Counted from the stretch's first letter, positions 5,443-54,746 are shown. The stretch: DNA of 64,000 nt from Dehalococcoidia bacterium (GCA_965249315.1 OZ252225.1:1065951-1129950), one strand, 5' to 3'. Numbers and translations are program-made. Notes: generated by a model from the letters alone, not told the origin.

Positions 5443-8400
5443 GTGAAATCCTTCCGTCTGATGGCTTGGCTGGCGGTCCGGCGGCTCCGGGTGTCGCCGG
5501 GACTTCTCCTGGCCTCAAGCCTCGGGGTGCTGCTGGCCGTGACCATGGTTGCGGCCACGGTGATCCACTCGAACACCATAGCGCAGGCCGGGCTGAGCTA
5601 CGCCCTGGGCCGCAACATATCCCAGGATGCGCTGAACTTCCACATCCTCGTTCCCGAACGGCCCTTGGGTGCGGCGGACTATGCGCGCCTGAACACGTCC
5701 GTCAGCGGCTCGATTGAGAGTCACCTGGGCTGGTTGCAGGAGTCCGGGCACCGCCTGGGCCGCTCGCCCGTCTTCTCGTCGACGCCAGGCCCGGAGGGCA
5801 GCGGGCCGATGCTCGTGGGCGCGGACGGCTATATCTACTTCCAGGAGGCGTTCCAGGAGCACGCCCGCCTGGTGGACGGCCGTTGGCCTGAGGGGGTGGC
5901 TTCGGAAGACGCCGAGGGCGCCCTGCACGTCGAGGCCGTCGTGGGGCTAGACGTTGCGTCCCGGGGACTGAGGCTCGGGACGGGAAGCAAGGCGTTCCTC
6001 GCTCCGTTGGGACCGGGCGCAGACGACAGGATCGTGGTGGAGGTCGTGGGGGTGGTGGAGCCGTCGAACCCGGAGGACCACTACTGGTTCGGGGACTTGT
6101 CGCGGTTCCGAGTGGAGACGGACGGCGTCAGCGTGTTCGTCCCGTTCTACGTATCCGAGCAGGCCTTCTTCGAGGGCGCCGGCAGGCGGTATCCCATGCT
6201 GCTGGGCTCCTACAGCTGGTACGTCGACCTGGACCTGGGGGCGCTGCGCCCCGAGTCCATCGGGCGGATCGAGCGAGCCCGCGAGGCGCTGGAGTCGGAG
6301 CTCAACCAGACGTTCCCCCGCACCCTGGCGCTGAGCGCCCTGGGCGGAGTCATCGAGGACTACCAGCGAGACCTGGCCTTTGCCCGAGTGCCCCTGTTCC
6401 TGTTCGCCACGCTGGTGGCGGGAGTAGTCCTCTACTACCTGGTGCTGGTTGTCCACTTCCTGGCCCAGAGCCGGGGGCCTGAGATTGGCCTGCTTCGCGG
6501 CCGGGGCGCCAGCAGGCTCCAGATCGGCGCGCTGCTGGGGCTGGCGGAGGGGCTGCTGGTGGCGCTCCCAGGCGCCGTGGGCGGTCCCCTTCTGGGGTGG
6601 GCCATAGCGCGAATTCTGCCCGCGGGAGACCCGGGGCTGGTCACCGTCTCCGTGCCGCTCACGGCAACGCCCTTCATCGTGGGCGCGGTCGGCGCCCTGG
6701 TGACCGCCGTGCTGTTCCTGGTCTTCAACTCTTGGACCAGCGGGCAGAAGATCATCAGCCTCCTGTGGGAGCGGGGGCGATCCGCTGAGGGAGAGGGCCG
6801 CCTCCGGTACGCCATCGACCTGATGGTGCTGAGCGCCGTTGGACTGGTGTGGTGGCAGATCCAGGGTCGCGGCGGGTTCCTGGCGGAGGAGCTCCTCGGT
6901 GAGGGGCTGGAAATCGACCTCTCGCTTCTCCTAGGACCAGTCCTGGCCCTGGTGGCGGCAGGTATCATCCTCGTCCGAGTACTGCCCATCATCCTACGAC
7001 TCTTGGGAGCGGCCCTGGGCATGCTCCACTGGCCGTGGCTGGGCCACGCTCTGACCCGCCTGGCCCGCAACGCTCTGTCGTGGAGCGCGCTGGCCGTGCT
7101 CCTTGCGGTGGCCACCGCCCTGGCCATCTTCGGGGCCACCCTGAACACGAGCCTGGCCGATAGCCGGGCGAGCCAGGCCCGCTACGCTGTAGGGGGCGAC
7201 GTGGTGGTGGCCAACTGGAAGTCCCTGGGCATTCCCCTTTCGCCGGAGGAGCAGCGGGAGCTACTCATAGAGGCCCCAGGGGTGGAGGAGTTGACGCCGG
7301 TTCTCCGAGGGTCGATGGCCCTGGGAGGCCCGTCCGGCAACGTCGACGTCTCTCTCGTGGCCATGGACCCTGATGCGGCACAGCAAGCCATGTGGTTCCG
7401 CGAGGACTTTGCGGACACCACCCTCGACGAGCTGTTTCGGCCCCTGCGCGGCCCGGCCCGGCCCCAGGAAGGGGTCGCCCTGCCGGCGGCGGCCCAGTCC
7501 GTGGGCGTGTGGGTCAACCTGCCGGAGGGCATCCCCTTCCACAACCTGTGGGCCACGGTGCGAGACACAAAGGGGCTCACGGAGAACGTCCAGCTAGGAG
7601 AGCTCCACGCTTCGGGCTGGTCCTACCTGGAGGGGCCCGTTCCAGTGAAGGCCCACCTGACGCCTCCCTACAGTCTGCATGCGATCTTCATCAGCGGGCC
7701 GCAGTTCTCTTCCACGGCCTTCAGCGCGGGCACCATGGCGCTGGACGACGTGACGGTGCGGGTGGGGGAGGAGCTCCGGGTGGTGGAGAGCTTCGACAAC
7801 GACCTGGGCGCGTGGAGGCCCATGCCGCACTTGGACGACGTGCCGGACGTGGTGTCCCTCTCTCCCGACGCTGCGCACTCGGGCACCCTGGGAGCTCTCT
7901 TCATTTGGGAGCGCGCCATAGGGGGAGAGCTTCGGGGGATCTTTGCGGCGCCCGGGCCGCTCCCACTGCCTGCAGTGGGCAGCTCCGCCTTCACGCCGGG
8001 CCAGGTGCTCGTGGGGCAGGTGGCCGGCGGCTCGGTGCCGGTGGTTGTCCGCTCCACCTTCACCCACTTCCCCACCCTCTATCCCGGGGACGGGCCTTTC
8101 CTCATCGTCAACGAAGACCACCTCCGCGAATACCGGAGGAGCCTGCCGCAAGGAGCGCCCCTGGAAGCGGAGGAGTTCTGGCTGGCCTTGGGGCCTGGAG
8201 CGGACCGCGCAGGCACCGTGGCAGCCCTGGAGGAGAGCACGAGAGGCCTGGCCAGGGTGCGAGACCAGGAGGCGGAGGCCCGGCTTGCCCTGGGGAACCC
8301 CCTGTCGGGTGCAGGCCTGGGAGGGGTGGCCTGGCTGGCCCTGGGCACATTGAGCGGGGTAGCCGTGCTGGGCCTTCTCCTGTATGCTGGCCTAGCGGCC

Positions 8401-8740: not shown

Positions 8741-11700
8741 GTGAAGCTGGCAGCCCTGGCGCGCATGGGAGCGCTCATAGCCGTGCGAAGGACGGCCGCC
8801 GATTGGCGGCTGCAACTCGCCGCGGTCTTCGGCATGGTGCTGGCTGTAGCGCTGATGTCGGCCGCCGTCATCTACTCCAACGCGCTTCGGGAAACGGCGC
8901 TGCGGTATGCGTTGCGCAACGCGGACGACAAAACGCTGCACATGATCGTGGGGGAGTCCCACGCCCTGGACCCGGCCCTGTTCCTGGCGACGCGAGACGT
9001 GGTGGAACGCGGCATTCACGGGCCACTGCGGCCCTACATCGACGGGTCTTCCCTCCAGATCGAAACGTCGACGCTGCTGTACGGCGGCCTGCCGCAGTTC
9101 AACCTACCCGACTCGCAGCGGCACCGAGGCCCGGTCTACTCGCTGACGGACGTCCAGGAACACTTCCAGGTGGTGGCGGGGAGGTTACCCCAGCCCGCCG
9201 GCGGAGACTTGGAGGTCGTCATCGACCAGGCTGGCGCGTCCGCGCTGGACCTCGCCATCGGCGACCGCTTCAACGGGCTTCCGGCCGTCTCGGAGGGCAG
9301 ACCGGCGCTCCCCATCCACGTGGTGGGAATCGTGGAGCCGCTGGACCCGGACAACCGAGTCTGGCAGCTGGGCTTCGCCAGCCGATTCACGCGAAGCTCG
9401 GGAGGGTGGACCACGTTGCCGCTCTACGCAGACGCTAGGGCCCTCTTCGACACGGTGTCCAACGCCTTCCCCGGCCTCTACACCAACTACCGCTGGTCCT
9501 TTTACGTGGACCGGGAGAACCTGCGGGCAGGGGACGCGCAGAACCTGCGGACTCTGCTTCCCCAGGTTCGGCGCAACGTCTTTGGACTGCTCGCCATCCC
9601 CTCCTGGAGGACGGAGTTGGAAGGGGTGCTAGACCGCTTCGTCTTCCTGCTCACCCTGGCCCGCATCCCGCTCTTCCTCCTAGTGTTCCTGGCGATCGGT
9701 GTGTTGCTCTACTACCTGTTCCTCATAGCGGGCCTCATGGGAAGAGTGCGGGCCTCGGAGGTGGCCGTGTTCCGCAGCCGGGGCGCGTCCACACCGCAGG
9801 TGGGGCTCCTGATCCTCCTGGAGGGCCTGCTGCTGGCTGTGCCCGCCGTGGTGGTTGGGCCGTTTCTGGCCCAGGGCCTGGTCATCCTAACCGGACGCGT
9901 CCTTACTTCGGCCGGCGAAAACACGGACCTGGCCTTTGTGACGCTCACGCCCGAAGTGTTCCTGCTGGGCGGCGTGGGCGCGCTGATGGCCGTGGTCGTG
10001 CTGACCGCGACAACGTTGGGCTCATCCCGAAAGGGTGTGGTGGAGTTCGGCCGGATGGAGGCCCGCCCGCCGGACCAGCTCTTCCTGCACCGCTACTACC
10101 TGGACGTGGCACTCATTGGCCTGATGGGGCTGCTGTGGTGGCAGCTAAAGACCCGCGACTCAGTGCTCATCCAACCCCTGGCGGCCTCCGACGTGCAGAT
10201 CGACATCACGCTGCTGCTGGGGCCCGTTCTGGGAACCCTGGCCGCAGGCCTGTTGCTTCTGCGCTTCTTCCCGCTAGCGATGCGGGCCGTGGCGTGGCTG
10301 GCAGAGCCGTGGAGCCCGGTGTGGCTGGTGCAGGGGATCCGCCGCGTTGCACGGGACCCCGTGCCCGCAGGCTCCCTGCTGGTGCTGCTGGCCCTGGCCA
10401 CGTCGCTGGGGGTGCTGAGTTCGGCCTTCATCACGACGCTGGAGAGGAGCCAAGAGGAACGCGCGCTGTACGAGGCCGGGGCCGACTTCCGCGTGAACCA
10501 TGACCTGGGTGCGGAGCTAGCGAGTGGGCGGAGCCCCGCAGAAGAGCTGGTGGCCAGCAGCCCACCGGGCGTGGCCGCCGCGGACGTGATGCGACTCTCA
10601 GTTGGGGCAATGACGGCGGGATTCGGCCGAGGCGCAACGCTGCTGGCCGTGGACGGGGAGAAGATCGGCACGGTGGCCTGGTCCCGTCCCGACTTCGCCG
10701 GAGAACCGCTGTCCGTGGCACTCACCGTCCTGGAACCCGAGAGCGTCCCCATAGGCCTGCCACTACCGGAGGACGCCGTGGGGCTGGAGATCTGGGCGGC
10801 CCCGGGGATGCTCCCGAACAACACGGTGCTCCGGGCCCGGCTCCAGGACAGCAAGGGAACGTTCTTCAACGCCACCTTCGCGGCGCTGGGCGAGTACGAG
10901 GACTATCGCGAGGCGGTGACGCGCTCCCTGTCCGGCAATGGGTGGCGCTTCCTGGAGGCCCAGATTCCGCTACATCCCTACTCGACACGCCGAGGCCCCC
11001 AACCGCCGCTGCTGGAGGGGCCGTTCACGCTCCACACGCTCTGGGTCAACACCCCCCAGGGGGACACCAGCGGCGCGATCTTCCTAGACGATCTCAAGGC
11101 GCAGCGGCACGCGGGGGCGGTGGAGGTGGCCTCGTTCCAGGAGCTGGGCGACTGGCACCCCCTGGAGAACCCTGCAGCTCCAGGCCTGGCAGCGCTGGAG
11201 GTGAGCGAGACGGTTGGCCGCGCCGGACGCAAGAGCGTAGCCTACACCTGGGGCGTCGGCAGGGCCCCCCTGCGCGGCATCCAGGTGGGACCGGCGGGCG
11301 ACCCCGTCCCGGCCCTCGCCAGCTCCTCCTTCCTGGAGGCCAACGAGGTCCAGGTGGGTGACGTCGTAACCTTCTCCGTGGAGTCGACCGCGGTGGCCGT
11401 GGAACTGATTGGGGACGTGGGGTTCTTCCCCACCGTGGACCCACGCACGACGGAGTTCCTGGTGGCGGACCTGGACTCGCTGCTGCTGCACGCGAACCTC
11501 CAGACGCTGCGCCGTCTCCGTCCCCCGGCGGAGCTCTGGGTCCGCGACGGCAGCGGGACCCTGACGGTGAGCTCCCTAGAGCGAGAGATCACGTACCTTG
11601 GCGGTGAGGTTTCCAACGTCCATGACGCCGCGGAGATGGTGGCTACCCGAACGTCGGACCCGCTGCTGACCGCAGGATGGGCCGGACTGCTGGCGCTCTC

Positions 11701-12100
11701 TTTCCTGACCGTGGTGCTTGCCAGCTCCTCGGGGTTGCTGCTCTATAGCTACATCGACGCGCGGGAGCGACAGGGAGAGTTCGCGATGCTTCGCAGCCTG
11801 GGCTTCTCGCGGCTGCAGGTCAACGGCGTGGTCTGGTTCAACCTGATCCTGGTGGTGACGTTGGGCCTTGCCGTTGGAACCTGGGGCGGGCAGTGGCTGG
11901 GCGCCACGCTCCTCCCGCTGCTGGAGGTGGCGGAGGGAGGCACGCGCGTGACGCCGCCCATGGTACTCGAAACGAACTGGTCGACGCTGGTATTGGCCTA
12001 CGCCATCCTGGCCGCCGCCACCGCCGCTACGGTAGTCGCCCTGGCCTGGGCTATCTCGAGGCTGGACATACAGCGGCTGCTGCGCGTAGAGGGAGGATAA
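8741..12100 (+). CDS. Giant ABC transporter permease with two FtsX-type modules, paralog 2
   Basis: 1119 aa with the same architecture and recognisable N-terminal similarity to 5443-8736. It starts 4 nt after the upstream stop, and its stop overlaps the next start (TAATG). Confidence 0.8.
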   Translation: MKLAALARMGALIAVRRTAADWRLQLAAVFGMVLAVALMSAAVIYSNALRETALRYALRNADDKTLHMIVGESHALDPALFLATRDVVERGIHGPLRPYIDGSSLQIETSTLLYGGLPQFNLPDSQRHRGPVYSLTDVQEHFQVVAGRLPQPAGGDLEVVIDQAGASALDLAIGDRFNGLPAVSEGRPALPIHVVGIVEPLDPDNRVWQLGFASRFTRSSGGWTTLPLYADARALFDTVSNAFPGLYTNYRWSFYVDRENLRAGDAQNLRTLLPQVRRNVFGLLAIPSWRTELEGVLDRFVFLLTLARIPLFLLVFLAIGVLLYYLFLIAGLMGRVRASEVAVFRSRGASTPQVGLLILLEGLLLAVPAVVVGPFLAQGLVILTGRVLTSAGENTDLAFVTLTPEVFLLGGVGALMAVVVLTATTLGSSRKGVVEFGRMEARPPDQLFLHRYYLDVALIGLMGLLWWQLKTRDSVLIQPLAASDVQIDITLLLGPVLGTLAAGLLLLRFFPLAMRAVAWLAEPWSPVWLVQGIRRVARDPVPAGSLLVLLALATSLGVLSSAFITTLERSQEERALYEAGADFRVNHDLGAELASGRSPAEELVASSPPGVAAADVMRLSVGAMTAGFGRGATLLAVDGEKIGTVAWSRPDFAGEPLSVALTVLEPESVPIGLPLPEDAVGLEIWAAPGMLPNNTVLRARLQDSKGTFFNATFAALGEYEDYREAVTRSLSGNGWRFLEAQIPLHPYSTRRGPQPPLLEGPFTLHTLWVNTPQGDTSGAIFLDDLKAQRHAGAVEVASFQELGDWHPLENPAAPGLAALEVSETVGRAGRKSVAYTWGVGRAPLRGIQVGPAGDPVPALASSSFLEANEVQVGDVVTFSVESTAVAVELIGDVGFFPTVDPRTTEFLVADLDSLLLHANLQTLRRLRPPAELWVRDGSGTLTVSSLEREITYLGGEVSNVHDAAEMVATRTSDPLLTAGWAGLLALSFLTVVLASSSGLLLYSYIDARERQGEFAMLRSLGFSRLQVNGVVWFNLILVVTLGLAVGTWGGQWLGATLLPLLEVAEGGTRVTPPMVLETNWSTLVLAYAILAAATAATVVALAWAISRLDIQRLLRVEGG

Positions 12101-12987
12101 TGGTAAGCGTACCCCAGGATGGCCCGGCGCTCATCGAATGCCTGGACGTGTTCAAGTTCTACCAGCGGGCCGGGATGGAGGTGGTGGCCCTGCGAGGCCT
12201 GGACCTGGAGGTCCGGCGCGGGGAGTTCATGGCCATCATCGGGGCCAGCGGGTCGGGAAAGAGCACGTTGATGAACATCCTCTCCGGCCTGGACAGGCCC
12301 TCTGCGGGCAGCGTTCGGGTGGGAGACCGCGACCTTGCAGAGCTGAACGAGCGGGACCAGGTGGAGTACCGTCGCACCGAGGTGGGTTTCATCTGGCAGG
12401 CGACGTCCCGGAACCTGCTGACCTACCTGACGGCCCGAGACAACATCGAGCTTCCCATGGCCATTACCGGGCTGCCAGGAGAGGAGCGCCGCGAGCGCGC
12501 CATGGAGCTGCTGGTCACCGTGGGACTGGAAGACAAGGCCGAACGCTTCCCCTACCAACTCTCGGGAGGGGAGCAGCAGCGGGTGGCCCTCGGGGTGGCC
12601 CTTGCGAACAAGCCGCCGCTGCTGCTGGCCGACGAGCCAACGGGCGAGCTGGACACCCGAACCGCGGAGGAGGTCCTGCTGGCCATGCAGTCCCTCTGCC
12701 GTACGCAGGGGGTCACCATCGTAATGGTCACCCACTACAGGGGCGTGACACCCTTCGTCAACCGCGTCGTCCTGATCCGGGACGGTCGCATTGCCGCCGA
12801 GACGGTGCTGGAGCCGACGTTCCGACGCCCAGGCGAGATCGTGCAGGAGGACTACGTGGTGGTGGACCGGGCCGGACGCCTACAGCTGCCGCGAGACGCG
12901 GTGGAGCACCTACAGCTTCGAGGCAGGGCGCGGGTGCTGCCACAGGACGAGGGCGCGCTCATCACGCGCCCCAGGAGGCAGGCGTGA
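12100..12987 (+). CDS. ABC transporter ATP-binding protein (MacB/LolD-type) with a ~70-aa C-terminal extension
   Basis: The ATG at 12100 overlaps the upstream TAA. It has Walker A GASGSGKST, signature LSGGEQQR and Walker B LLLADEPTGELD. The longer track ORF from 11893 would lie inside the permease gene. Confidence 0.85.
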   Translation: MVSVPQDGPALIECLDVFKFYQRAGMEVVALRGLDLEVRRGEFMAIIGASGSGKSTLMNILSGLDRPSAGSVRVGDRDLAELNERDQVEYRRTEVGFIWQATSRNLLTYLTARDNIELPMAITGLPGEERRERAMELLVTVGLEDKAERFPYQLSGGEQQRVALGVALANKPPLLLADEPTGELDTRTAEEVLLAMQSLCRTQGVTIVMVTHYRGVTPFVNRVVLIRDGRIAAETVLEPTFRRPGEIVQEDYVVVDRAGRLQLPRDAVEHLQLRGRARVLPQDEGALITRPRRQA

Positions 12988-13691
12988 CGGACGCAGCACC
13001 CATCATCAGCGCCCGTGAGTTGGTGCGCGTCTTCGAGTCCGGAGCGGCCGACGTGCCCGCGCTCAGGGGAGTAAGCGTCGACGTCAAACGCGGGGAGTTC
13101 CTGGCGCTCATGGGCCGCTCCGGCTCCGGGAAGACCACGCTGCTCAACCTCCTGGGAGGCCTGGACCGCCCCACGAGCGGAACGGTGCTCTTCGACGGTC
13201 TGGAACTGACGCAGGCGTCGGACCGGGCGCTGACGGAGCTGCGCCGCTACAAGGTGGGATTCGTGTTCCAGATGTACGGCCTGCTTCCCATCCTCTCGGC
13301 GTATGAGAACGTGGAGCTGTCCCTGCGCATCAACGGGATGCCCCGGGGGCAGCGGCGGCAGCGGGCCATGGAGGCCCTGGAACTGACGGGACTGGGCGCC
13401 CGGGGGCGACACCGCCCCTACGAGCTCTCCGGCGGCGAGCAGCGCCGGGTTGCCATTGCCCGGGCACTGGCCGTGGAGCCGCCCGTCCTCCTGGCCGACG
13501 AGCCGACGGGGGACCTGGACTCGACGACGGGCGCCGGCATCATATCCGTGCTCCGCGACGTGGTCCAGCAACAGGGCATCACAATCGTGGCCTCGACGCA
13601 CGAGCCAGCCCTGGCCGAGGCCGCCGATCGGGTGCTCTACATGGCCGACGGCGGGTTCGTCGAGGAGCCCGCTCCGGCCAGGTCCGGCTAG
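12984..13691 (+). CDS. ABC transporter ATP-binding protein (MacB/LolD-type), second copy
   Basis: The GTG at 12984 overlaps the upstream TGA (GTGA). It has Walker A GRSGSGKTT, signature LSGGEQRR and Walker B VLLADEPTGDLD. Confidence 0.85.
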   Translation: MTDAAPIISARELVRVFESGAADVPALRGVSVDVKRGEFLALMGRSGSGKTTLLNLLGGLDRPTSGTVLFDGLELTQASDRALTELRRYKVGFVFQMYGLLPILSAYENVELSLRINGMPRGQRRQRAMEALELTGLGARGRHRPYELSGGEQRRVAIARALAVEPPVLLADEPTGDLDSTTGAGIISVLRDVVQQQGITIVASTHEPALAEAADRVLYMADGGFVEEPAPARSG

Positions 13692-13708
13692 GACCCAGCG
13701 GACCGGTA

Positions 13709-13742
13709 CGGGCCTCCCCCGCGCACGGGATGCGGAGGCCCG
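13709..13742 (+). terminator. GC-rich hairpin after the ABC module (possible terminator, no U-tract)
   Basis: CGGGCCTCC (13709-13717) pairs with GGAGGCCCG (13734-13742) across a 16-nt loop. Confidence 0.3.
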
Positions 13743-13774
13743 ACAACACTGTCAATGGAGCCCTGGACGCCCCC

Positions 13775-14629
13775 ATGGGTCGACTGGAAGGAAAGGTAGC
13801 TGTCGTCACCGGCGCAAGCCGGGGCATCGGCGAGGAGATTGCCCGGCTGTTCGCCACCGAGGGGGCCCGGGTGGTGTGCACGGCCCGCACCCTTCGGGAG
13901 GGCGAACACCGCCTGGAAGGCTCGTTGGAGACGACCGTGGCGTCCATCCGAGCCGACGGGGGTGAGGCGATACCCGTCGCAGCCAACCTTGCCCTGCCGG
14001 AGGAGTGCCGACGGGTGGTCGAGGAGACCCACGCGGCCTACGGGCCCATCGACGTGCTGGTAAACAATGCAGCGCTGGCCTACTTCCAGCCGATCGCTTC
14101 GTACCCGCTGAACCGCTGGCTGCGCACGTGGGACGTGAACGTGCATGCGGCCTTCGTCCTCAGCCAGCTTGCGCTGGAAGACATGGTCCCCCGCCGCAGT
14201 GGGAGCATCGTCACCATCTCCTCGGCGGCTGCCGTGGGGCCGGGACGAGGGCCCTACAAAGCCGCTCCCGAGTTTCGGAATAGCACCGCCTACGGGGCCC
14301 AGAAGGCGGCATTGGAGCGCTTCACGCAGGGCCTGGCCCAGGAGGTCTTCCAGTATGGGGTCTCGGTGACGTGCGTGGCCCCCTCCCAGGTGGTGCCGAC
14401 GCCGGGGACGGTCTACCATGGCCTGGTGACCGGCAGGGACGACCCCACGGGAGAGCCGCCGGAGCTGATGGCGCAGGCCGTGCTGCTGCTGGCCACGGAA
14501 CCGCCGGAGAAGGTGACAGGCAGGGTAGTCTACAGCCAGCAACTTCTGAGAGAATACGGCTCAATTACGGAGGCCCGCGGGACGGGCGTCGATCCGTCCC
14601 GTCCGGGCACCGGGTACAGCAGCGCCTAG
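13775..14629 (+). CDS. Short-chain dehydrogenase/reductase (SDR) family oxidoreductase
   Basis: The N-terminus MGRLEGKVAVVTGASRGIGEEIA carries the classic TGxxxGIG fold, with NNA and a YxxxK-type region downstream. The alternative upstream ATG at 13730 falls inside the preceding hairpin. Confidence 0.85.
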   Translation: MGRLEGKVAVVTGASRGIGEEIARLFATEGARVVCTARTLREGEHRLEGSLETTVASIRADGGEAIPVAANLALPEECRRVVEETHAAYGPIDVLVNNAALAYFQPIASYPLNRWLRTWDVNVHAAFVLSQLALEDMVPRRSGSIVTISSAAAVGPGRGPYKAAPEFRNSTAYGAQKAALERFTQGLAQEVFQYGVSVTCVAPSQVVPTPGTVYHGLVTGRDDPTGEPPELMAQAVLLLATEPPEKVTGRVVYSQQLLREYGSITEARGTGVDPSRPGTGYSSA

Positions 14630-14641
14630 TAGGAGAAGGCT

Positions 14642-15130
14642 ATGTCGAGTGAACCACTGCCGGTGGTCGTTGGACAACTCGCGCCGGACTTTACTCTTCC
14701 AGGCGTGGACGGGGAGTCGATCACCCTGAGCAGCTACCGCGACCGGTGCTGCCTCATCCTGGTCTTTCTGCGAGGCTTCTTCTGACCCTTCTGCCGTCGC
14801 AATCTCCGCCAGTTGGCGGAGCAGCATGCCGACTTTCAGGGCCTGTGCGTGGAGACGCTGGCCGTGGCGCCGACCACCGTACAGGCGGCCCAGGCCTACT
14901 TCCGAAACGATCCGGTCCCGTACGCCTCCGTCGCCGACCCTGAGCGGGAGGTCTTCGAGCAGTACGGCGTGGCGCGCCGGCCCCTATCCCTCGGCCAGCG
15001 CCCGGGCCTCTTCATCATCGACCGAAAGGGAGTGGTCCGCTTCGCGCACGTGGGCCGACAGCAGTGGAACATCCCCTCCATGGACCAGGTCCTGGAGGTG
15101 TGCCGCACCCTCAAGTGCGGGCCTGACTAG
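14642..15130 (+). CDS. Peroxiredoxin-like (AhpC/TSA, thioredoxin-fold) protein with in-frame TGA: probable UxxC selenoprotein
   Basis: ATG 14642 is in the same frame as track ORF 14813..15130. The only interruption is TGA 14783-14785, in the context LVFLRGFF-TGA-PFCRRNL. This is exactly where homologs carry the first Cys of the F/YRG.WCP.C motif. A hairpin follows 18 nt downstream. Confidence 0.7.
14804..14821 (+). promoter_or_regulatory. Candidate bacterial SECIS hairpin
   Basis: Perfect 7-bp stem CTCCGCC/GGCGGAG with apical loop AGTT, which contains G-U. The stem starts 18 nt after the TGA at 14783-14785. Confidence 0.55.
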
Positions 15131-33687: not shown

Positions 33688-34254
33688 CTAGGGGGCGTCC
33701 GCGCTGCCCTTCACCACCACGGGCAGGCCAGCGACCATGAAGTAGACGTCGTCGGCCTGGGCGGCGAAGAGCTGGTTCACGCGGCCCAGGGCGTCCTCGA
33801 AGGCGCGGCCCAGGGGCGTGGGCGGGATGACGCCGAGGCCGGTCTCGTTGCTGACGACCACCCACGCGGCGTCGCTGCGGGCCTGGAGGGCGAGGAGCGC
33901 CTGGGCGCCCGCGACGGCGTCGTCGCGGGCGGTCCACGGGTCGTCCGCCCGCAGCAGGAGGTTGCTAACCCACAGCGTGAGACAGTCGAGGAGGACTGTG
34001 TCGTAGCGGTGCAGCACCGGTGCGAGGACGGCCGAGAGGTCGAGGGGCTCTTCGAGCGTGTCCCAGTCCTTCGGGCGACTCTCGCGATGGGCGCTGATGC
34101 GCTCGGCCATTTCCCGGTCGCCCGCCTCGGCGGTGGCGACGACGAGGACGCTGCGGCCGTCGGCGGCGAGCCGCTGCGCGTAGCTGCTCTTCCCGGCGCG
34201 TACGCCGCCCAGGACCAGGGTCAGCCTCTTTCGCACGTCGCCGCCGCCTACCAT
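33688..34254 (-). CDS. cobU: Adenosylcobinamide kinase / adenosylcobinamide-phosphate guanylyltransferase (CobU/CobP)
   Basis: 188 aa from ATG 34254 (ATGGTAG overlap with the upstream stop). It has P-loop LVLGGVRAGKSSYA, DCLTLWVSN and VSNETGLGVIP. The 480-aa track ORF is an antisense-extended artefact. Confidence 0.88.
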   Translation of the reverse strand: MVGGGDVRKRLTLVLGGVRAGKSSYAQRLAADGRSVLVVATAEAGDREMAERISAHRESRPKDWDTLEEPLDLSAVLAPVLHRYDTVLLDCLTLWVSNLLLRADDPWTARDDAVAGAQALLALQARSDAAWVVVSNETGLGVIPPTPLGRAFEDALGRVNQLFAAQADDVYFMVAGLPVVVKGSADAP

Positions 34255-35987
34255 AGCGGCGCCTCGAAGAGGCTGCGGAGCGGGGACAGCAGTGCAATCG
34301 CCAGCAACAGCACCGTAACTTCGGCAATCTCGTTCACAGCGCCGTAGGCGTCGCCGGTCATTCCGCCCAGCAGCCGTGTGACCCACCAGCCCACGCCAAG
34401 GGCAACGGCGATGGCCGCGCCGAGCAGGAGCAGTCCGGCGAGGCCCAGGAGCAGCGCGCCCGCCGCGGCGGCGGTGGCGAGTCCGAACACCACCTGCCGC
34501 CAGTGTGCGCCGGCCTGAAACGCCGTGCCGGCCCCGCTCTCCCGGACGTAGGTGAAGGCGGCCATGGTGGTGACCATGCCGAAGCGGGAGAGGCTGGGGA
34601 ACAGGGCGAGCAGGGCGGCCCGGACCTCGTTGGGGACGCCGGTGAGCAGCGACCACTTCAGCAGCAGCAACGCAGCGCCGCCGGCCACGGCGAACGCGCC
34701 GACGTGGGGGTCCCGGAGGACCTGCAGCCGCCGCTCGGGGGTGTGTGCGCCCAGGAGGCCGTCGCAGCAGTCCAGGAACCCCTCCGTGTGTATCGCCCGG
34801 GTCAGTATCAGCAGCGCCGCGACGAGGAGCGCGCCGACGACGTAGGGCGGCAGGACCTGGCCCGCCGCGAAGTCGAGGCCTGCGAGGACGCCGCCGATGC
34901 CCAGGCCGACGAGGGGGAAGTAGGCCCGCGCCGGCCCCATCCGCGCCACTGCACCCGGCGAGACGGGAAGCACGGTGAGGAACCCGATGGCCAGCACCGC
35001 GCCGGTGCCTTCGCCCAGCCGCATGTCGAGGTCGAGGAGGGGCCGCAACCTCAGGTGCGACAGGACGGCCCGGTGCCCGGCCTCCGCCGAGACGTGGGCG
35101 GCGACGAGGTAGTCCCGCACCGTGGGGCACAGGCTGTGGGCGACGAGGGCCGCCGCGCCGGAGATGAAGCCGTCGAGGACGACGACGCGGTGGGCAAGGG
35201 CGCCGCCCAGAACGACGCCGGCCAGCACGCCGATCTCGAAACCGCCGACCCTGGCCAGCACGTCGAGGCCGTCGGCCGGGTCGGGGCGGTTCACGGCCAG
35301 CGCGCGCTCGACAACGGCGACCTTGTGCTCCAGATCCCGTTCGTTGCGTCCCGTGCCGCGGCCCGTGGTCTCTTTGGGCGGTCTGCCGGTCAGGGCGACG
35401 GCTACGGCGCTCGACGCCGTGGTGTTGCCGATGCCCATGTCGCCGGTGCCTATGAGGTCAGCGCCGCTCTCGGCGGCCTCCAGGGCGAGCGCGACGCCTG
35501 CGGTCACGCACGCCTCGGCCTGCCCTCGCGTCATGGCCGGGCCCTGCGTTATGTCGGCTGTGCCGCGCCCCGCACCCACCACTCGGAGGTCGGGGTGGTC
35601 GGGGAGCTGCGCGGCCACGCCTGCGTCGACGACGACCAGGCCGACGCCCGCCATCCTCGCCATGACGCTGATTGCGGCGCCGCCCGCGAGGATGTTCCGC
35701 ACCATCTGCGCCGTGACCTCCTGGGGGTAGGCGGTGACGCCCTGGGCCACTACCCCGTGGTCTCCGGCGGCAACGACGACCGTCTTACCGCGCAGTCTGG
35801 GCCGTGCGGTCCCGAATACTCCCGCCAGCTGGACGGACAACTCTTCCAACCGGCCCAGGCTGCCCGGCGGCTTCGTGAGACGTCCCTGCCGACGCGCGGC
35901 TGCGTTCGATGCCTCGCGGTCAGCGCGGGCAATGCGGCGGACCACGTCCTCAACGCTGTGCGGGGTGAGGGGCGGTCGCTGCGACAT
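34248..35987 (-). CDS. cobT-cobS: Fused nicotinate-nucleotide--DMB phosphoribosyltransferase (CobT) and cobalamin-5'-phosphate synthase (CobS)
   Basis: The N-terminal ~350 aa carry LTKPPGSLGRLEEL, GDHGV, GDMGIGNTT and MRLGEGTGAVLA (CobT). The ORF then continues directly into IGFLTVLPV...YFPLVGLGIGG...HTEGFLDCCDG...GMTGDAYGA (CobS, polytopic). ATG 35987 follows AGGAGG. The track start at 36023 overlaps the upstream gene. Confidence 0.85.
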   Translation of the reverse strand: MSQRPPLTPHSVEDVVRRIARADREASNAAARRQGRLTKPPGSLGRLEELSVQLAGVFGTARPRLRGKTVVVAAGDHGVVAQGVTAYPQEVTAQMVRNILAGGAAISVMARMAGVGLVVVDAGVAAQLPDHPDLRVVGAGRGTADITQGPAMTRGQAEACVTAGVALALEAAESGADLIGTGDMGIGNTTASSAVAVALTGRPPKETTGRGTGRNERDLEHKVAVVERALAVNRPDPADGLDVLARVGGFEIGVLAGVVLGGALAHRVVVLDGFISGAAALVAHSLCPTVRDYLVAAHVSAEAGHRAVLSHLRLRPLLDLDMRLGEGTGAVLAIGFLTVLPVSPGAVARMGPARAYFPLVGLGIGGVLAGLDFAAGQVLPPYVVGALLVAALLILTRAIHTEGFLDCCDGLLGAHTPERRLQVLRDPHVGAFAVAGGAALLLLKWSLLTGVPNEVRAALLALFPSLSRFGMVTTMAAFTYVRESGAGTAFQAGAHWRQVVFGLATAAAAGALLLGLAGLLLLGAAIAVALGVGWWVTRLLGGMTGDAYGAVNEIAEVTVLLLAIALLSPLRSLFEAPLW

Positions 35988-36012
35988 CGAGCCTCCTGAC
36001 GGGCCGCCGTGG

Positions 36013-36882
36013 CTAGAACTCAATGCCCGGCTGGGCCCTGATGCCGCTGTCCTCGAAGAGACGCTTGATCATGTCCGACGCCGGCTCGTCCGCCGGGCCG
36101 ATGAGGCTAACGGCTAGCGAGCCGGTCACCGGGTCTCGGTGGATGGCAGCCCTCACGCCGAAGGCGGACTCCATGGTCTCAGGCGATAGGACCTGCTCGG
36201 GCGGCCCCTCTGCGAGCACTCGCCCGCCGCTGAGCAGCACCAGTCGATCGCAGTAGCGCGCCGCCATGTTGAGATCGTGGATGGCCGCGATGGCCGTCAG
36301 ACCATCGTCCACCAGCCGCCGCACCACGTTCAGCACCTTGAGCTGGTGCAGGACGTCCAGGTTCGTCGTTGGCTCATCCAGCAGGAGGACGCGGGGCTGC
36401 TGGGTCAAGGCGCGGGCAATGAACACCCGCTGACGTTCGCCCCCGGACAGGGTGTCGAGCGTTCTGTCGGCGAACTGCTCCGTCTCCGTGAGCCGCATGG
36501 CGTCCCGGGCGATGCGGTTGTCCTCCCTGCCCTCGATCTGGAAGCGCCCGAGGTGGGGGTACCGGCCCATGAGCACGAGCTCGATGACGTTGAAGCCGTG
36601 CGTGTAGGGCGCAATCTGCGGGACGAGGGCGACGCTCGCGGCGAGCGCCCTGGACGACTGGTGTTCGACGTCCACGCCGTCAAACCGGACGACGCCCTCC
36701 TGGCAGCGGAGGATGCCGGACAAGGCCCGGAGGAGCGTAGTCTTGCCTGCGCCGTTGGGGCCTACAAGGCCAACGAGCTGACCCCGGTCGGCGTGCAGGC
36801 TCACGCCCTGCAGCAGCCTCTTGTCATCCACCTCGTAGGTGAGGCCCTGCGCGCTGATCGTGGGGGGTCTGTTACCGTTCAT
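36013..36882 (-). CDS. ABC transporter ATP-binding protein (FecE/BtuD-type)
   Basis: 289 aa: Walker A GPNGAGKTT, signature LSGGERQRV, Walker B LLLDEPTTNLD, H-loop AIHDLN. Confidence 0.88.
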   Translation of the reverse strand: MNGNRPPTISAQGLTYEVDDKRLLQGVSLHADRGQLVGLVGPNGAGKTTLLRALSGILRCQEGVVRFDGVDVEHQSSRALAASVALVPQIAPYTHGFNVIELVLMGRYPHLGRFQIEGREDNRIARDAMRLTETEQFADRTLDTLSGGERQRVFIARALTQQPRVLLLDEPTTNLDVLHQLKVLNVVRRLVDDGLTAIAAIHDLNMAARYCDRLVLLSGGRVLAEGPPEQVLSPETMESAFGVRAAIHRDPVTGSLAVSLIGPADEPASDMIKRLFEDSGIRAQPGIEF

Positions 36883-36889
36883 CGCTCCG

Positions 36890-38041
36890 TCACTCCGCCA
36901 GGCTGAAGGCTTCGGGGGCCGGGTCGGGGAAGGCGTCCGGCCAGAGCAGTCGGGCCAAGTGCTCAGCGCCTCGGATGTTCCAGTAGGAGAGGGTGGTGTA
37001 GTACCTGCTTTCGACGACGTGGACCCGCCCGTTCATAATCGCCGGGACCTCGGCCAGAGCCTCGTTGTCGAGCAGGCTCTGGCGGAACTCCTCTGCGCCG
37101 AAGGCCACCGGCTGCGGGATGACTATCACATCAGGGGCCATGGCGATGACCCCTTCCAGGCTGGTGATCTGGTTGCTGTCGACGCCTGCGTCCGCGGCGG
37201 CGTTGATTCCGCCGGCTGCCACGATGACGCCGCCCTCGGTTGAGCCGCCGCCCGCGACCCATAGCTGGTCCGAGTAGCTGGTGACCGCAAGCACCCGAGG
37301 TGGAGGCTCCTGCTTCTGGGTCACCGACACAATGGCGTCGTACCGGTCGCTCACCTCCGCCGCGAACTCAAGGGCGCGCTCCTCCTCGCCGAAGATGTAG
37401 CCCATGAGCAGAATGCCGTTTATTCGCGCCTCCGGGTCATGCTTGAGCTCCGTCTGGATGACGGGAATGCCGGTCGTCGCCAGGACTGCGATGGCCTCCG
37501 CCGGGAAGAATGGGCTGGTGACGACAACGTCCGGCGCCTGGGCGATGATGGTCTCCGGGTCCCGGGTGACCTCCGGCTTGTCCTGCAGCAGTGGGGCGAT
37601 GTTCGAGAAGGTGGTGTCCTTGGAGACGGCGCCAACGCCCACAAGGCGCTCCACAGGCACGAGCGCAACGGTCATTTCGTCATGTCCTATGGAGGCGGTG
37701 ACGATGCGCTGCGGCTTGGACGGGATGCTCACCAAGCCGTTCAGCCCCTCCACCTGGCGGGGCCAGCCGAAGTTGGTGGGGTCCACAATGCCACGCACGT
37801 CTTCGAACGCGCTCGCCAGGGGCTCCGGGGTCGCCGTGGGAGCGGCGGTGGGGGCAATCGTGGGCGCCGCGGTGGGCGCGGGCGCTACAGTCGGAGCGAC
37901 GGCGGGCGCAGCAGTCGCTGCGGTGGGGACGGCGGTGGGCGCAGCGGCCGGCGTGTCGGGGTCCGACGAACAGGCCGCTAACGCCAGCCCAAGAAGGACT
38001 GCCAGAGCAATGGCGAGGGGACGAAGGTGTGAAATGGACAC
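36890..38041 (-). CDS. ABC transporter substrate-binding lipoprotein (cluster-A BtuF/FecB-like) with APT-rich tether
   Basis: Lipobox LALAACS, a ~55-aa Ala/Pro/Thr linker, then a periplasmic-binding-protein type-2 pattern (PQRIVTAS..., APDVVVTS, PDVIVIPQ). Confidence 0.8.
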   Translation of the reverse strand: MSISHLRPLAIALAVLLGLALAACSSDPDTPAAAPTAVPTAATAAPAVAPTVAPAPTAAPTIAPTAAPTATPEPLASAFEDVRGIVDPTNFGWPRQVEGLNGLVSIPSKPQRIVTASIGHDEMTVALVPVERLVGVGAVSKDTTFSNIAPLLQDKPEVTRDPETIIAQAPDVVVTSPFFPAEAIAVLATTGIPVIQTELKHDPEARINGILLMGYIFGEEERALEFAAEVSDRYDAIVSVTQKQEPPPRVLAVTSYSDQLWVAGGGSTEGGVIVAAGGINAAADAGVDSNQITSLEGVIAMAPDVIVIPQPVAFGAEEFRQSLLDNEALAEVPAIMNGRVHVVESRYYTTLSYWNIRGAEHLARLLWPDAFPDPAPEAFSLAE

Positions 38042-38066
38042 GCTGACTCCTTTCAGTGCTGCGGTC

Positions 38067-39146
38067 TCACAGTGAGTAGGCCTGACGTTTGTTCCTTATG
38101 AGCAGAAGGATGAAGAAAGGACCACCGACGAGGGCGGTGAGGATGCCGACCCGAAACTCGGCGGGCTGGATGATGGTCCTCGCGACGGTGTCGGCGGCGA
38201 TGACGAGGACCGCGCCCCCCAAGGCGCTCATTGGGATGAGCACCCGATGGTCAGGCCCAAGCATCAGCCGAAGGACGTGGGGCATGACCAGACCCACGAA
38301 AGCGATGATGCCGCTCACTGCCACCGAGGCGCCGGTGGCCAGCGCCGCGGCCGCCAGCAGGATGATGCGCGCCAGACCCACCCGGACACCCATGGACCGC
38401 GCCTCGTCATCGCCGAGCATCATGAGGTTCAGGTCGCGGGCCATCAGCATCATCACGGCCGCGCCGCCGGCAATGAGGGGCGTGGCTATCTGGACGTGCT
38501 CCCAGGATCGGGAGTCCAGCCCTCCCGCCAGCCAGAACAGGACTCCTCGGAGCGCCGCGTTGTCGGGCAGGGTGATGATGATTGCGGAGATGACCGCGCC
38601 GAGGAAGGCGTTGACGGCAACGCCCGCAAGGAGGAGCGTGGCCATGGAGAAGCGGCCGCCCACGGCGGCGATGCCGTAGACCAGCAGGGAGGAAGCCAGC
38701 GCACCCGCAAAGGCAAAGGTCGGCAAGGCGAGGAAGAAGAGGCCGGTCAGCCCCATGGCGATTGCCACGACCGCGCCCAGCGCGCCGCCGGCCGAGACGC
38801 CAATGATCCCGGGATCGGCCATGGGGTTGCGGAACAGGCCCTGTAGGGTGGCTCCGGCGACGCCCAGAGCAGCGCCCACGGACGCTCCCACGATGATCCT
38901 GGGCAGCCTGATCTGCTCGATGACCAGCTGCTCGGTGCGCCCAAAACTACCGACGTCGAACCCGAAGAAGGCCAGGACGATGGAAGCGACGCGGCCAACC
39001 GGGATGTTGACGGGGCCGACGCTGAGGGAGGTCAGGGCCACGGCCAGGATGAGGAGAGTAAGGACGGAGGCGCCCACCGCGAGGCGAGCGGTCACGCCCG
39101 ATTGGCGATAGCTCCCAAGGGAGCGCAGCCCCACGACACCCAACAA
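38067..39146 (-). CDS. FecCD-family ABC transporter permease (BtuC-like)
   Basis: 359-aa polytopic protein with typical FecCD motifs: LPRIIVGASVGAALGVAGATLQGLFRNPMADPGIIGVS, then LGDDEARSMGV. The TTG start is 6 nt after GGAGG. Confidence 0.88.
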   Translation of the reverse strand: MLGVVGLRSLGSYRQSGVTARLAVGASVLTLLILAVALTSLSVGPVNIPVGRVASIVLAFFGFDVGSFGRTEQLVIEQIRLPRIIVGASVGAALGVAGATLQGLFRNPMADPGIIGVSAGGALGAVVAIAMGLTGLFFLALPTFAFAGALASSLLVYGIAAVGGRFSMATLLLAGVAVNAFLGAVISAIIITLPDNAALRGVLFWLAGGLDSRSWEHVQIATPLIAGGAAVMMLMARDLNLMMLGDDEARSMGVRVGLARIILLAAAALATGASVAVSGIIAFVGLVMPHVLRLMLGPDHRVLIPMSALGGAVLVIAADTVARTIIQPAEFRVGILTALVGGPFFILLLIRNKRQAYSL

Positions 39147-39178
39147 AAAAGACCTCCGACGGCTCTCCGCGGGAGGTC
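39145..39178 (-). terminator. Intrinsic terminator / SD-sequestering hairpin of the riboswitch expression platform
   Basis: The minus strand reads GACCTCC-CGCGGAGAGCCGTC-GGAGGTC-TTTTTT. The 3' arm GGAGG is also the SD of the permease gene, and the T-run runs into its TTG start. Confidence 0.7.
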
Positions 39179-39428
39179 ATTCCTTGGCTCTGCCCGGGAC
39201 TGCTACCCGAGAACCGAGGGACCCTCTCTGGTGCGGAGAGTAGTCACCCTCCGTTCAGGCAGGTCTCCTGGCTCGCGGGTGGATTTCCCCTGCCGGGCCC
39301 TTCCCATCAGCTCGCTGACAGTGGGCTCCGGCTCCAAAACCCCGCTCACAGTGGCGCTACCGCGGCGGAATCTCACCGCCTTCCCTATTCTCCCTGGGTG
39401 GGCACCTGAACGGACAGCTCTATATTTG
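39179..39428 (-). promoter_or_regulatory. Cobalamin (B12) riboswitch
   Basis: The minus strand reads GAATAGGGAAGGCGGTGAGATTCCGCCGCGGTAGCGCCACTGTGAGCGGGG...GGGAAGGGCCCGGCAGGGGAAATCCACCCGCGAGCCAGGAGACCTGCC. The last part, GCCAGGAGACCTGCC (39273-39258), is the B12 box. It sits upstream of a B12 uptake/salvage operon. Confidence 0.88.

Positions 39429-51640: not shown

Positions 51641-54640
<3,000 letters not shown>

Positions 54641-54671: not shown

Positions 54672-54746
<75 letters not shown>

Follow-up and report, generated by a model that had tools for sequence, protein, structure and literature searches.

A probable selenoprotein gene of peroxiredoxin-like fold, with a SECIS-like hairpin inside its coding sequence, in a Dehalococcoidia bacterium

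The window that we have analysed is a stretch of 64,000 nucleotides from a Dehalococcoidia bacterium (GCA_965249315.1, OZ252225.1:1065951-1129950), and all positions given here are counted from its first letter. On the + strand, positions 14642-15130 form one frame of 162 codons, Sec48 included, which starts at ATG 14642, has two in-frame TAG codons upstream and closes at TAG 15128-15130. The sole in-frame interruption is TGA 14783-14785, codon 48, lying in the sequence LVFLRGFF-TGA-PFCRRNL; the single frame with a lone TGA that the initial annotation had described was thus recovered in every element and at the same coordinates. Upstream lies an SDR gene (13730-14629), whose counterpart in the syntenic loci L001 and L002 was recognised as adh_short; a Shine-Dalgarno-like AGGAG comes immediately 3' of its TAG stop, and this close adjoining suggests that the selenoprotein gene is co-transcribed with the SDR gene. 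The features of the locus are the following.

14631-14635, + strand: Shine-Dalgarno-like AGGAG, read from the sequence, with a 6-nt spacer to the ATG
14642-15130, + strand: full putative selenoprotein gene, Prx-like with AhpC/TSA fold, defined by the single frame, Pfam, conservation on both sides of the TGA and the AF2 model of the homolog P0008
14783-14785, + strand: in-frame TGA, putative Sec codon (residue 48) and first residue of U-P-F-C, TGA in 100 of 100 family members
14792-14794, + strand: TGC codon of Cys51, second redox residue of UxxC, placed by alignments at the peroxidatic position of canonical Prx enzymes
14804-14821, + strand: SECIS-like hairpin, recognised by folding energy, covariation, a synonymous-site test, loop codons and bSECIS criteria
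14999-15001, + strand: codon of Arg120 in the motif SLGQRPGLF, placed by HMMER alignment to Arg116 of Mtb AhpE
15101-15118, + strand: C-terminal C-x4-C tail, Cys154-Cys159, present in part of the family

In the mechanical ORF list the locus is split into a piece of 47 aa (14642-14785) and another of 105 aa, starting from TTG 14813. The truncation by gene callers that had been anticipated is therefore real, and public annotations of the relatives likewise carry fragments; the 3' piece is listed at 14813-15130, as the initial annotation had it, except that its start codon is TTG and not an internal Met. When the window was searched for other genes with a read-through TGA, only the Prx gene passed, the two other candidates being antisense to real + strand genes.

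Once joined, with Cys in place of the stop, the protein matches the Pfam family PF00578 (AhpC-TSA) with 95.3 bits (cutoff 26, E = 3e-27), its residues 10-134 aligning with profile positions 1-123 of 124. Taken separately, the 47-aa piece covers positions 1-34 of the profile and the 105-aa one positions 48-123; since both fit the same profile, the TGA must fall inside a single peroxiredoxin-fold domain, at its redox motif. The first 47 codons, whose resemblance to Prx proteins the initial annotation had regarded as critical, are indeed Prx-like, besides being under purifying selection (see below). Our structural model is an AF2 prediction for the family member P0008, which is a 44%-identical homolog and not the window protein itself (pLDDT 90.1, pTM 0.87); its top PDB folds are those of BCP/PrxQ and AhpE, with TM scores of 0.85-0.87 (3drn, 5enu, 1xvw, 4x0x). 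The same model predicts that residue 48 lies directly N-terminal of a long helix, 49-67.

In alignments with AhpE and BCP, Cys51 coincides with the Cys that is peroxidatic in canonical Prx enzymes, Sec48 with the conserved Thr of their PxxxTxxC motif and Arg44 with its Pro, so that neither the canonical Pro nor the Thr is retained in the window protein, which reads RxxxUxxC. In the thioredoxin-family structure 3hdc, the best PDB sequence match to the window protein (E = 6.6e-14), the counterpart of Sec48 is the first Cys of WCPYC. The initial claim that the TGA sits exactly at the first Cys of the redox motif consequently holds for the thioredoxin-type CxxC, but not for the canonical Prx motif, in which the peroxidatic Cys corresponds to Cys51 and Sec replaces the Thr. 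Arg120, matched by HMMER to the catalytic residue Arg116 in Mtb AhpE, is invariant in our alignment A2. At the position of Cys51 a Cys is found in 99 of 100 members, the exception being the Ser of L003 (UPFS); given that the second Cys is missing also in the distant homolog L023 (CPFS), the first position of the motif is the essential one. The C-terminal C-x4-C tail (Cys154-Cys159) is restricted to 23 of the 98 members with the 3' end on the contig and may serve as a resolving or relay dithiol.

The TGA occupies codon 48 in all 100 family members that we have recovered, and the base following it is always C. Over all instances of the motif the proportion is 100 of 102, the two exceptions being the most distant homologs, L023 (TGT, CPFS, 32% identity) and L025 (TGC, CPYC, 24% identity); P0043 represents a further Cys form (CPFC). 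Among the relatives recovered there is no Cys-form ortholog above about 35% identity, and TGA members extend down to about 41% identity, with locus GC of 40-72% and unrelated gene neighbourhoods. The family ranges over Dehalococcoidia, Anaerolineae, Caldilineae, Acidimicrobiia and Thermoanaerobaculia (Chloroflexota, Acidimicrobiia and Acidobacteriota). A scan of GTDB species representatives found it in MAGs labelled Dehalococcoidia, Anaerolineales, Caldilineae, Acidimicrobiia/Actinomycetes and Thermoanaerobaculia, including one Dehalococcoidia MAG with a 93% identical and syntenic copy, which probably represents the species group of the window, and a metagenome scan, in which tblastn confirmed at least 379 relatives, contributed a further 80 loci. 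Protein searches returned mostly C-terminal fragments of 101-106 aa (42-93% identity), and the NCBI-sourced relatives among them were all fragments, of 92-121 aa, one of which is named "thioredoxin peroxidase"; the short C-terminal fragments present throughout the databases indicate that the locus is split in the same way everywhere. As to the gene neighbourhood, no redox partner is common to the family, the recurrent neighbours reflecting one abundant metagenome lineage or antisense-frame artefacts, and the link with the SDR and ABC-transporter genes is confined to close relatives, being absent in L003.

Both halves of the gene are under purifying selection. Before the TGA the median dN/dS is 0.38 and after it 0.31, and entropy peaks, in either half, at third codon positions; in the upstream part, the window gene and L001 differ by 0.33 synonymous vs 0.04 non-synonymous changes per site.

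The hairpin that follows the TGA is CTCCGCC-AGTT-GGCGGAG, with its 5' arm at 14804-14810, the loop AGTT at 14811-14814 and the 3' arm at 14815-14821, forming a perfect 7-bp stem that begins 18 nt past the TGA. Folded alone it reaches -13.3 kcal/mol, a value that 200 dinucleotide shuffles never equalled (z = -5.1). The same TGA with the same hairpin is present in 100 of 100 family members, a combined feature that is far beyond chance; the pattern that the initial annotation had associated with a decayed gene, namely relatives carrying TGC and no hairpin, is not seen among them. The perfect 7-bp stem reported earlier exists in this gene at 14804-14821, but what is kept across the family is a core of 6 bp, 14805-14810 with 14815-14820. 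In the column numbering that we have adopted for the hairpin, in which the U of UGA is 1, the outermost, seventh pair, 22-39, is paired in only about a third of the members and is lineage-specific.

RNAalifold, applied to 22 sequences, predicted as the only stem columns 23-28 with 33-38, with compensatory changes in four of the six pairs. For the 7-bp stem, 92.5% of cells are paired in the 22 sequences (64.2% when shuffled) and 88.7% in 87 distinct sequences (68.5% when shuffled), slid-register controls giving 31-64%. The covariation score for the 87 sequences is 0.48 vs 0.11, a value reached by none of 500 shuffles, and compensatory changes affect five of the seven stem pairs. Part of this covariation could in principle derive from coupling at the protein level, through an Arg/Ala swap at codons +8 and +11. 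Because the stem is located inside the coding sequence, synonymous sites could be tested directly: in all 64 sequences that have an Arg CGN codon at +11, the last base of this codon pairs with the first one of codon +8, and CGC is found opposite U in none of 46 cases, even if it makes up 42% of the CGN codons in the genome. These synonymous-site results argue against protein-level coupling as the source of the covariation. The residues at +8 and +11 swap in step with the pairing (R..A, R..T, A..R, T..R, S..R), and the loop codons are nearly fixed, with CAG in 97 and TTG in 98 of 100 members, TTG accounting for 6% of Leu codons in the genome. The hairpin is under selection at the RNA level. L023, the sole Cys form examined for the hairpin, has a small one too, with its register shifted. 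An extended lower SECIS stem that appears in the single-sequence fold was discarded, having no RNAalifold support.

Published criteria for bSECIS elements specify a loop of 3-9 nt, an upper stem of 4-16 bp, an MFE of -7.5 kcal/mol or lower, a G within the two initial positions of the loop, as a rule with G or U after it, and a distance of 16-37 nt from UGA to the loop (PMC13188914). The window hairpin has an apical loop AGUU of 4 nt, an upper stem of 6-7 bp, its MFE of -13.3 kcal/mol, a G as the second base of the loop, with a U after it, and 25 nt between UGA and loop; the initial description of a SECIS-type hairpin with G-U in its apical loop agrees with these criteria in all respects. An Rfam scan of the gene region returned no family covering the hairpin.

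How can a gene with a stop codon in the middle of its active site be maintained across several phyla? The most likely explanation is that it constitutes a bona fide selenoprotein gene, encoding a small cytoplasmic redox enzyme of Prx fold with Sec at residue 48, a reading to which we assign a probability of about 0.88 on sequence grounds. The U-x-x-C centre that had been proposed for this protein is supported by the TGA in 100 of 100 members, the Cys present at the same place in distant homologs and the covariation of the hairpin. According to this explanation, the UGA at 14783 would be recoded in translation instead of being read as a stop, and the residue inserted would be Sec. The mRNA hairpin located 18-19 nt downstream (6-7 bp, AGUU, its exposed G and U being 26-27 nt past the UGA) would bind and recruit SelB, which would bring Sec-tRNA(Sec) to the ribosome. 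In the protein, the selenolate of Sec48, predicted to cap the long active-site helix at its N-terminus, would attack the substrate, which we infer to be a peroxide or a disulfide, and Arg120, the conserved catalytic Arg of Prx, would probably activate that substrate. The oxidised selenium would then be resolved by Cys51, forming a selenenylsulfide within U-P-F-C that a thioredoxin-type donor would presumably reduce.

Instead of being a peroxidase, the selenoprotein could act as a general thiol:disulfide oxidoreductase of the thioredoxin, TlpA or ResA-like kind, or as a redox sensor. A UxxC motif with Sec at a helix N-cap is the arrangement of thioredoxins, the best PDB sequence match is the thioredoxin-family 3hdc with its WCPYC, the top NCBIfam match is a 'SelL-related redox protein' and the canonical Pro and Thr of Prx are lost. 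Conversely, the nearest folds are those of the peroxidases BCP/PrxQ and AhpE, the catalytic Arg of Prx and a Cys at the peroxidatic position are kept, the UxxS and CxxS variants would suit the chemistry of a one-residue peroxidase or of a selenenic acid, and the signal peptide of TlpA and ResA is missing from the window protein. On this sequence evidence the two activities look roughly balanced, the oxidoreductase or sensor role being a serious candidate to which we give somewhat less than an even chance.

Most of the probability left beside the selenoprotein explanation goes to a different recoding of the same UGA, either by read-through with a near-cognate tRNA (Trp or Cys) that the hairpin would stimulate, or by lineage-wide reassignment of TGA as in codes 4 and 25. 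This alternative draws on the fact that Sec machinery was not observed near the gene: tblastn with E. coli SelA, SelB and SelD as queries found no selA, selB or selD within the window or in what flanks the gene in related loci, and ARAGORN and Rfam found no tRNA-Sec in the window or locus flanks. These negatives say little, coming from 64 kb of sequence and from phyla in which a non-canonical 8/4 tRNA-Sec has been reported (Chloroflexi and Actinobacteria; PMC5389517). The only tblastn matches, to the GTPase domain of selB in L016 and L025, were set aside as probably other translational GTPases. Moreover, a Cys at position 48 would yield a functional CxxC protein, and some database entries give W for this codon. 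The latter, however, are gene-caller artefacts: the "full-length" proteins P0005-P0008 derive from short contigs translated with code 4, the underlying codon is TGA and translation with table 11 does not reproduce the database protein. Global reassignment is excluded, since TGA closes 9 of the window's 30 confident long ORFs, as well as 38 of the 98 family genes with the 3' end on the contig, and must be a normal stop codon for these organisms. Had Cys or Trp been intended, TGC, TGT or TGG should have surfaced somewhere among 100 lineages, and none was seen; the loop composition and spacing of the hairpin are those of a bacterial SECIS, and the phyla concerned include known users of Sec, its decoding having been documented in Chloroflexi, Actinobacteria and Acidobacteria (PMC1794560; PMC5389517). 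Altogether, we regard non-Sec recoding as improbable.

Less probable still is that the locus contains two genes, for a 47-aa peptide and an independent 105-aa protein starting from TTG 14813, with the hairpin working as an attenuator or in translational coupling. Automatic annotation presents the locus in this way in every public assembly examined, yet neither piece amounts to a complete fold, the first stopping exactly at the active site and the second being devoid of beta1-beta3 and of the redox motif. The two pieces are always in a common frame, the 27 nt from TGA to TTG encode the conserved in-frame PFCRR(N/H)L, and TTG 14813 is the Leu codon of the hairpin loop, kept for RNA reasons.

A nonsense pseudogene, in which a TGC or TGT to TGA change disabled a Cys-containing Prx-like gene, would account for a lone in-frame stop at a Cys-equivalent codon by one point mutation and for the two fragments reported by gene callers, but is hardly credible for a TGA shared at the same codon by 100 of 100 members from several phyla, too many for an assembly artefact to be plausible in about 100 independent assemblies, with purifying selection on both halves, a conserved and covarying hairpin and no other disabling lesion in the window copy, real decay in relatives looking different (a frameshift in L022, an internal deletion in L024). 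The conserved TGA, the purifying selection, the role of TGA as a normal stop and the covarying hairpin lead us to exclude together the pseudogene, two-gene and code-reassignment readings.

The selenoprotein reading has practical consequences. In public assemblies the present gene and at least several hundred relatives, of which one metagenome scan with tblastn confirmed at least 379, appear either as two fragments or under the name "thioredoxin peroxidase/peroxiredoxin" with 101-106 aa, and on some short contigs as a full-length protein with a spurious Trp, records that recognition of the family would correct. Such recognition would, besides, point to Sec decoding in lineages whose selenium use is poorly charted, namely the uncultured Dehalococcoidia, Anaerolineae and Acidimicrobiia. 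The hairpin itself is an unusually clean natural case of selection on RNA structure overriding codon preference within a coding region and, with an Arg codon whose third base follows its partner in the stem in all 64 sequences, it would be a good case for training and testing predictors of bacterial SECIS elements. In terms of enzymology, Sec in place of the catalytic Thr, with Cys at the peroxidatic position of a Prx fold, represents an interesting variant of Prx chemistry within a known class.

In comparison with known systems, the hairpin resembles the E. coli fdhF-type SECIS and the bSECISearch consensus in being an intragenic stem-loop just 3' of the UGA, with a small loop carrying G then U and a spacing of 16-37 nt. 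It differs from the fdhF-type element in that no bulged U is evident and the conserved stem has 6 bp only. We take its loop G-U to be 7 nt farther from the UGA than G23/U24 of fdhF, in fdhF numbering.

At the protein level, bacterial Prx-like UxxC selenoproteins were reportedly described by Kryukov and Gladyshev in 2004. The class has been catalogued as 'Prx-like thiol:disulfide oxidoreductase' (PMC1794560, Zhang et al. 2006; PMC13188914), and the GOS survey includes 225 sequences of 'Prx-like 1' (PMC2398784). With its PF00578 domain and U-P-F-C motif, the window protein falls under the catalogue definition of these selenoproteins, PF00578 with UxxC or UxxU (PMC2398784, PMC13188914), and the gene is a further member of these known selenoproteins, sharing with them the PF00578 fold, Sec as the first residue of UxxC, Cys-containing distant homologs, an intragenic SECIS and prediction by comparative genomics. 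The initial annotation was correct in considering the class known and this instance unannotated, the relatives being listed as fragments and not as selenoproteins. Compared by description, the catalogued members come mainly from Deltaproteobacteria and marine metagenomes, whereas the clade of the window belongs to Chloroflexota, Acidimicrobiia and Acidobacteriota, and it has signatures of its own, LVFLRGF-U-PFCRRHL, SLGQRPGLF and QQWEIP.

Among curated families the best match is NCBIfam NF040769, SelL-related redox protein, with 88.2 bits (E = 4.8e-25), below its cutoff of 120 and covering only profile positions 2-102 of 173. These relatives of eukaryotic selenoprotein L are Prx-like too and have the redox motif at the same place, but the motif of selenoprotein L is UxxU and that of the window protein UxxC. 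The PrxU family NF040737 scores 40.6 bits, its cutoff of 270 not being reached. PrxU of Eubacterium acidaminophilum (TxxU) has the same Pfam family, fold, use of Sec and catalytic Arg, but carries its Sec at the position of the peroxidatic Cys, whereas in the window protein Sec lies three residues earlier, at the Thr, and Cys is kept at the peroxidatic position. BCP/PrxQ and the 1-Cys Prx AhpE, which are the nearest solved folds, have a similar length of about 155-160 aa and the same monomer architecture; they differ by using PxxxTxxC without Sec, while the window protein has RxxxUxxC and 22-29% identity to them. That the clade forms a distinct and uncatalogued subfamily, with its own signatures, a 6-bp SECIS with AGUU loop, maybe an obligate use of Sec and the redox residue moved to the Thr position, is a tentative reading that we consider rather unlikely; the scores below every curated NCBIfam cutoff and the truncation in every public annotation examined are the further points that accompany it.

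The following features bear on the predicted selenoprotein and its homologs.

L003 2971-2982 (homologous locus, ENA ERZ25067160 contig_4): U-P-F-S in place of U-P-F-C
Window 15101-15118: C-x4-C tail (EVCRTLKCGPD, Cys154 and Cys159), C-terminus of the predicted selenoprotein
L023 10122-10143 (distant homolog of Cys form, TGT, CPFS): 5-bp hairpin with a GUU triloop
L004 758-760 and L005 758-760 (homologous loci): TGA codon, read from the DNA, behind a database Trp
L022 ~10001-10479 (Dehalococcoidia MAG CBDAOG010000008.1): copy with frame loss
L024 ~6123-6269 (Armatimonadota MAG JBBIIQ010000053.1): gene remnant
Window 8741-14629, syntenic in the close relatives L001 and L002: genes for an FtsX-family permease, two ABC ATPases and an SDR (adh_short), preceding the selenoprotein gene

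One variant of the active site is that of L003, which is without the Cys at position +3 and yet retains both the TGA and the hairpin, the latter with G-U wobbles; judged from its sequence, this combination implies that the predicted Sec alone can carry the chemistry. Additional thiols lie at the C-terminus. Among the 98 members of the family having their 3' end on the contig, 23 carry the C-x4-C tail, mainly those in a branch of Dehalococcoidia plus Thermoanaerobaculia; the tail may constitute a resolving or relay dithiol, or else a metal site. The hairpin of the Cys-form L023 is shifted in register relative to the family SECIS, and could be either a chance CGCG palindrome or the relic of a former SECIS.

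Public protein databases contain 'full-length' entries of the family (P0005-P0008) that present Trp at the Sec position. Since the DNA has TGA where these entries have Trp, the gene caller evidently applied genetic code 4 to their short contigs, an artefact that could misguide homology-based checks of Sec versus Cys. Two other copies look damaged. The N-terminal region of L022 is intact, as are its TGA and its hairpin, but the frame breaks after ...YEVKSSL; this points either to a recent frameshift that made the copy a pseudogene, or to an assembly indel. In L024, the N-terminal segment (..FVPVGSGAP) is fused directly to ..SVGQRPGLFIVD, with deletion of the entire active-site region, TGA included; real decay of the gene takes this form.

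Within the species group of the window, the selenoprotein gene lies directly downstream of the permease, ATPase and SDR genes, and is followed in the window, L001 and L002 by a convergent RraA-like gene and then FtsH; linkage to these neighbours is not kept in more distant family members. Elsewhere the window contains:

51643-54636: complete 23S rRNA gene
54672-54746: tRNA-Met (CAT), 36 nt downstream of the 23S rRNA gene
39241-39424 (-): cobalamin riboswitch (Rfam RF00174, 108 bits)

No 16S or 5S rRNA gene adjoins the 23S rRNA gene, which looks like an unlinked rRNA arrangement. Downstream of the riboswitch comes a series of genes on the minus strand (about 34248-39176). Among the 30 confident long ORFs of the window, TAG is the commonest stop codon (17, against 9 TGA and 4 TAA). 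Because TGA is usually the dominant stop in high-GC bacteria, such TAG-first usage looks unusual for a window of 66.5% GC.
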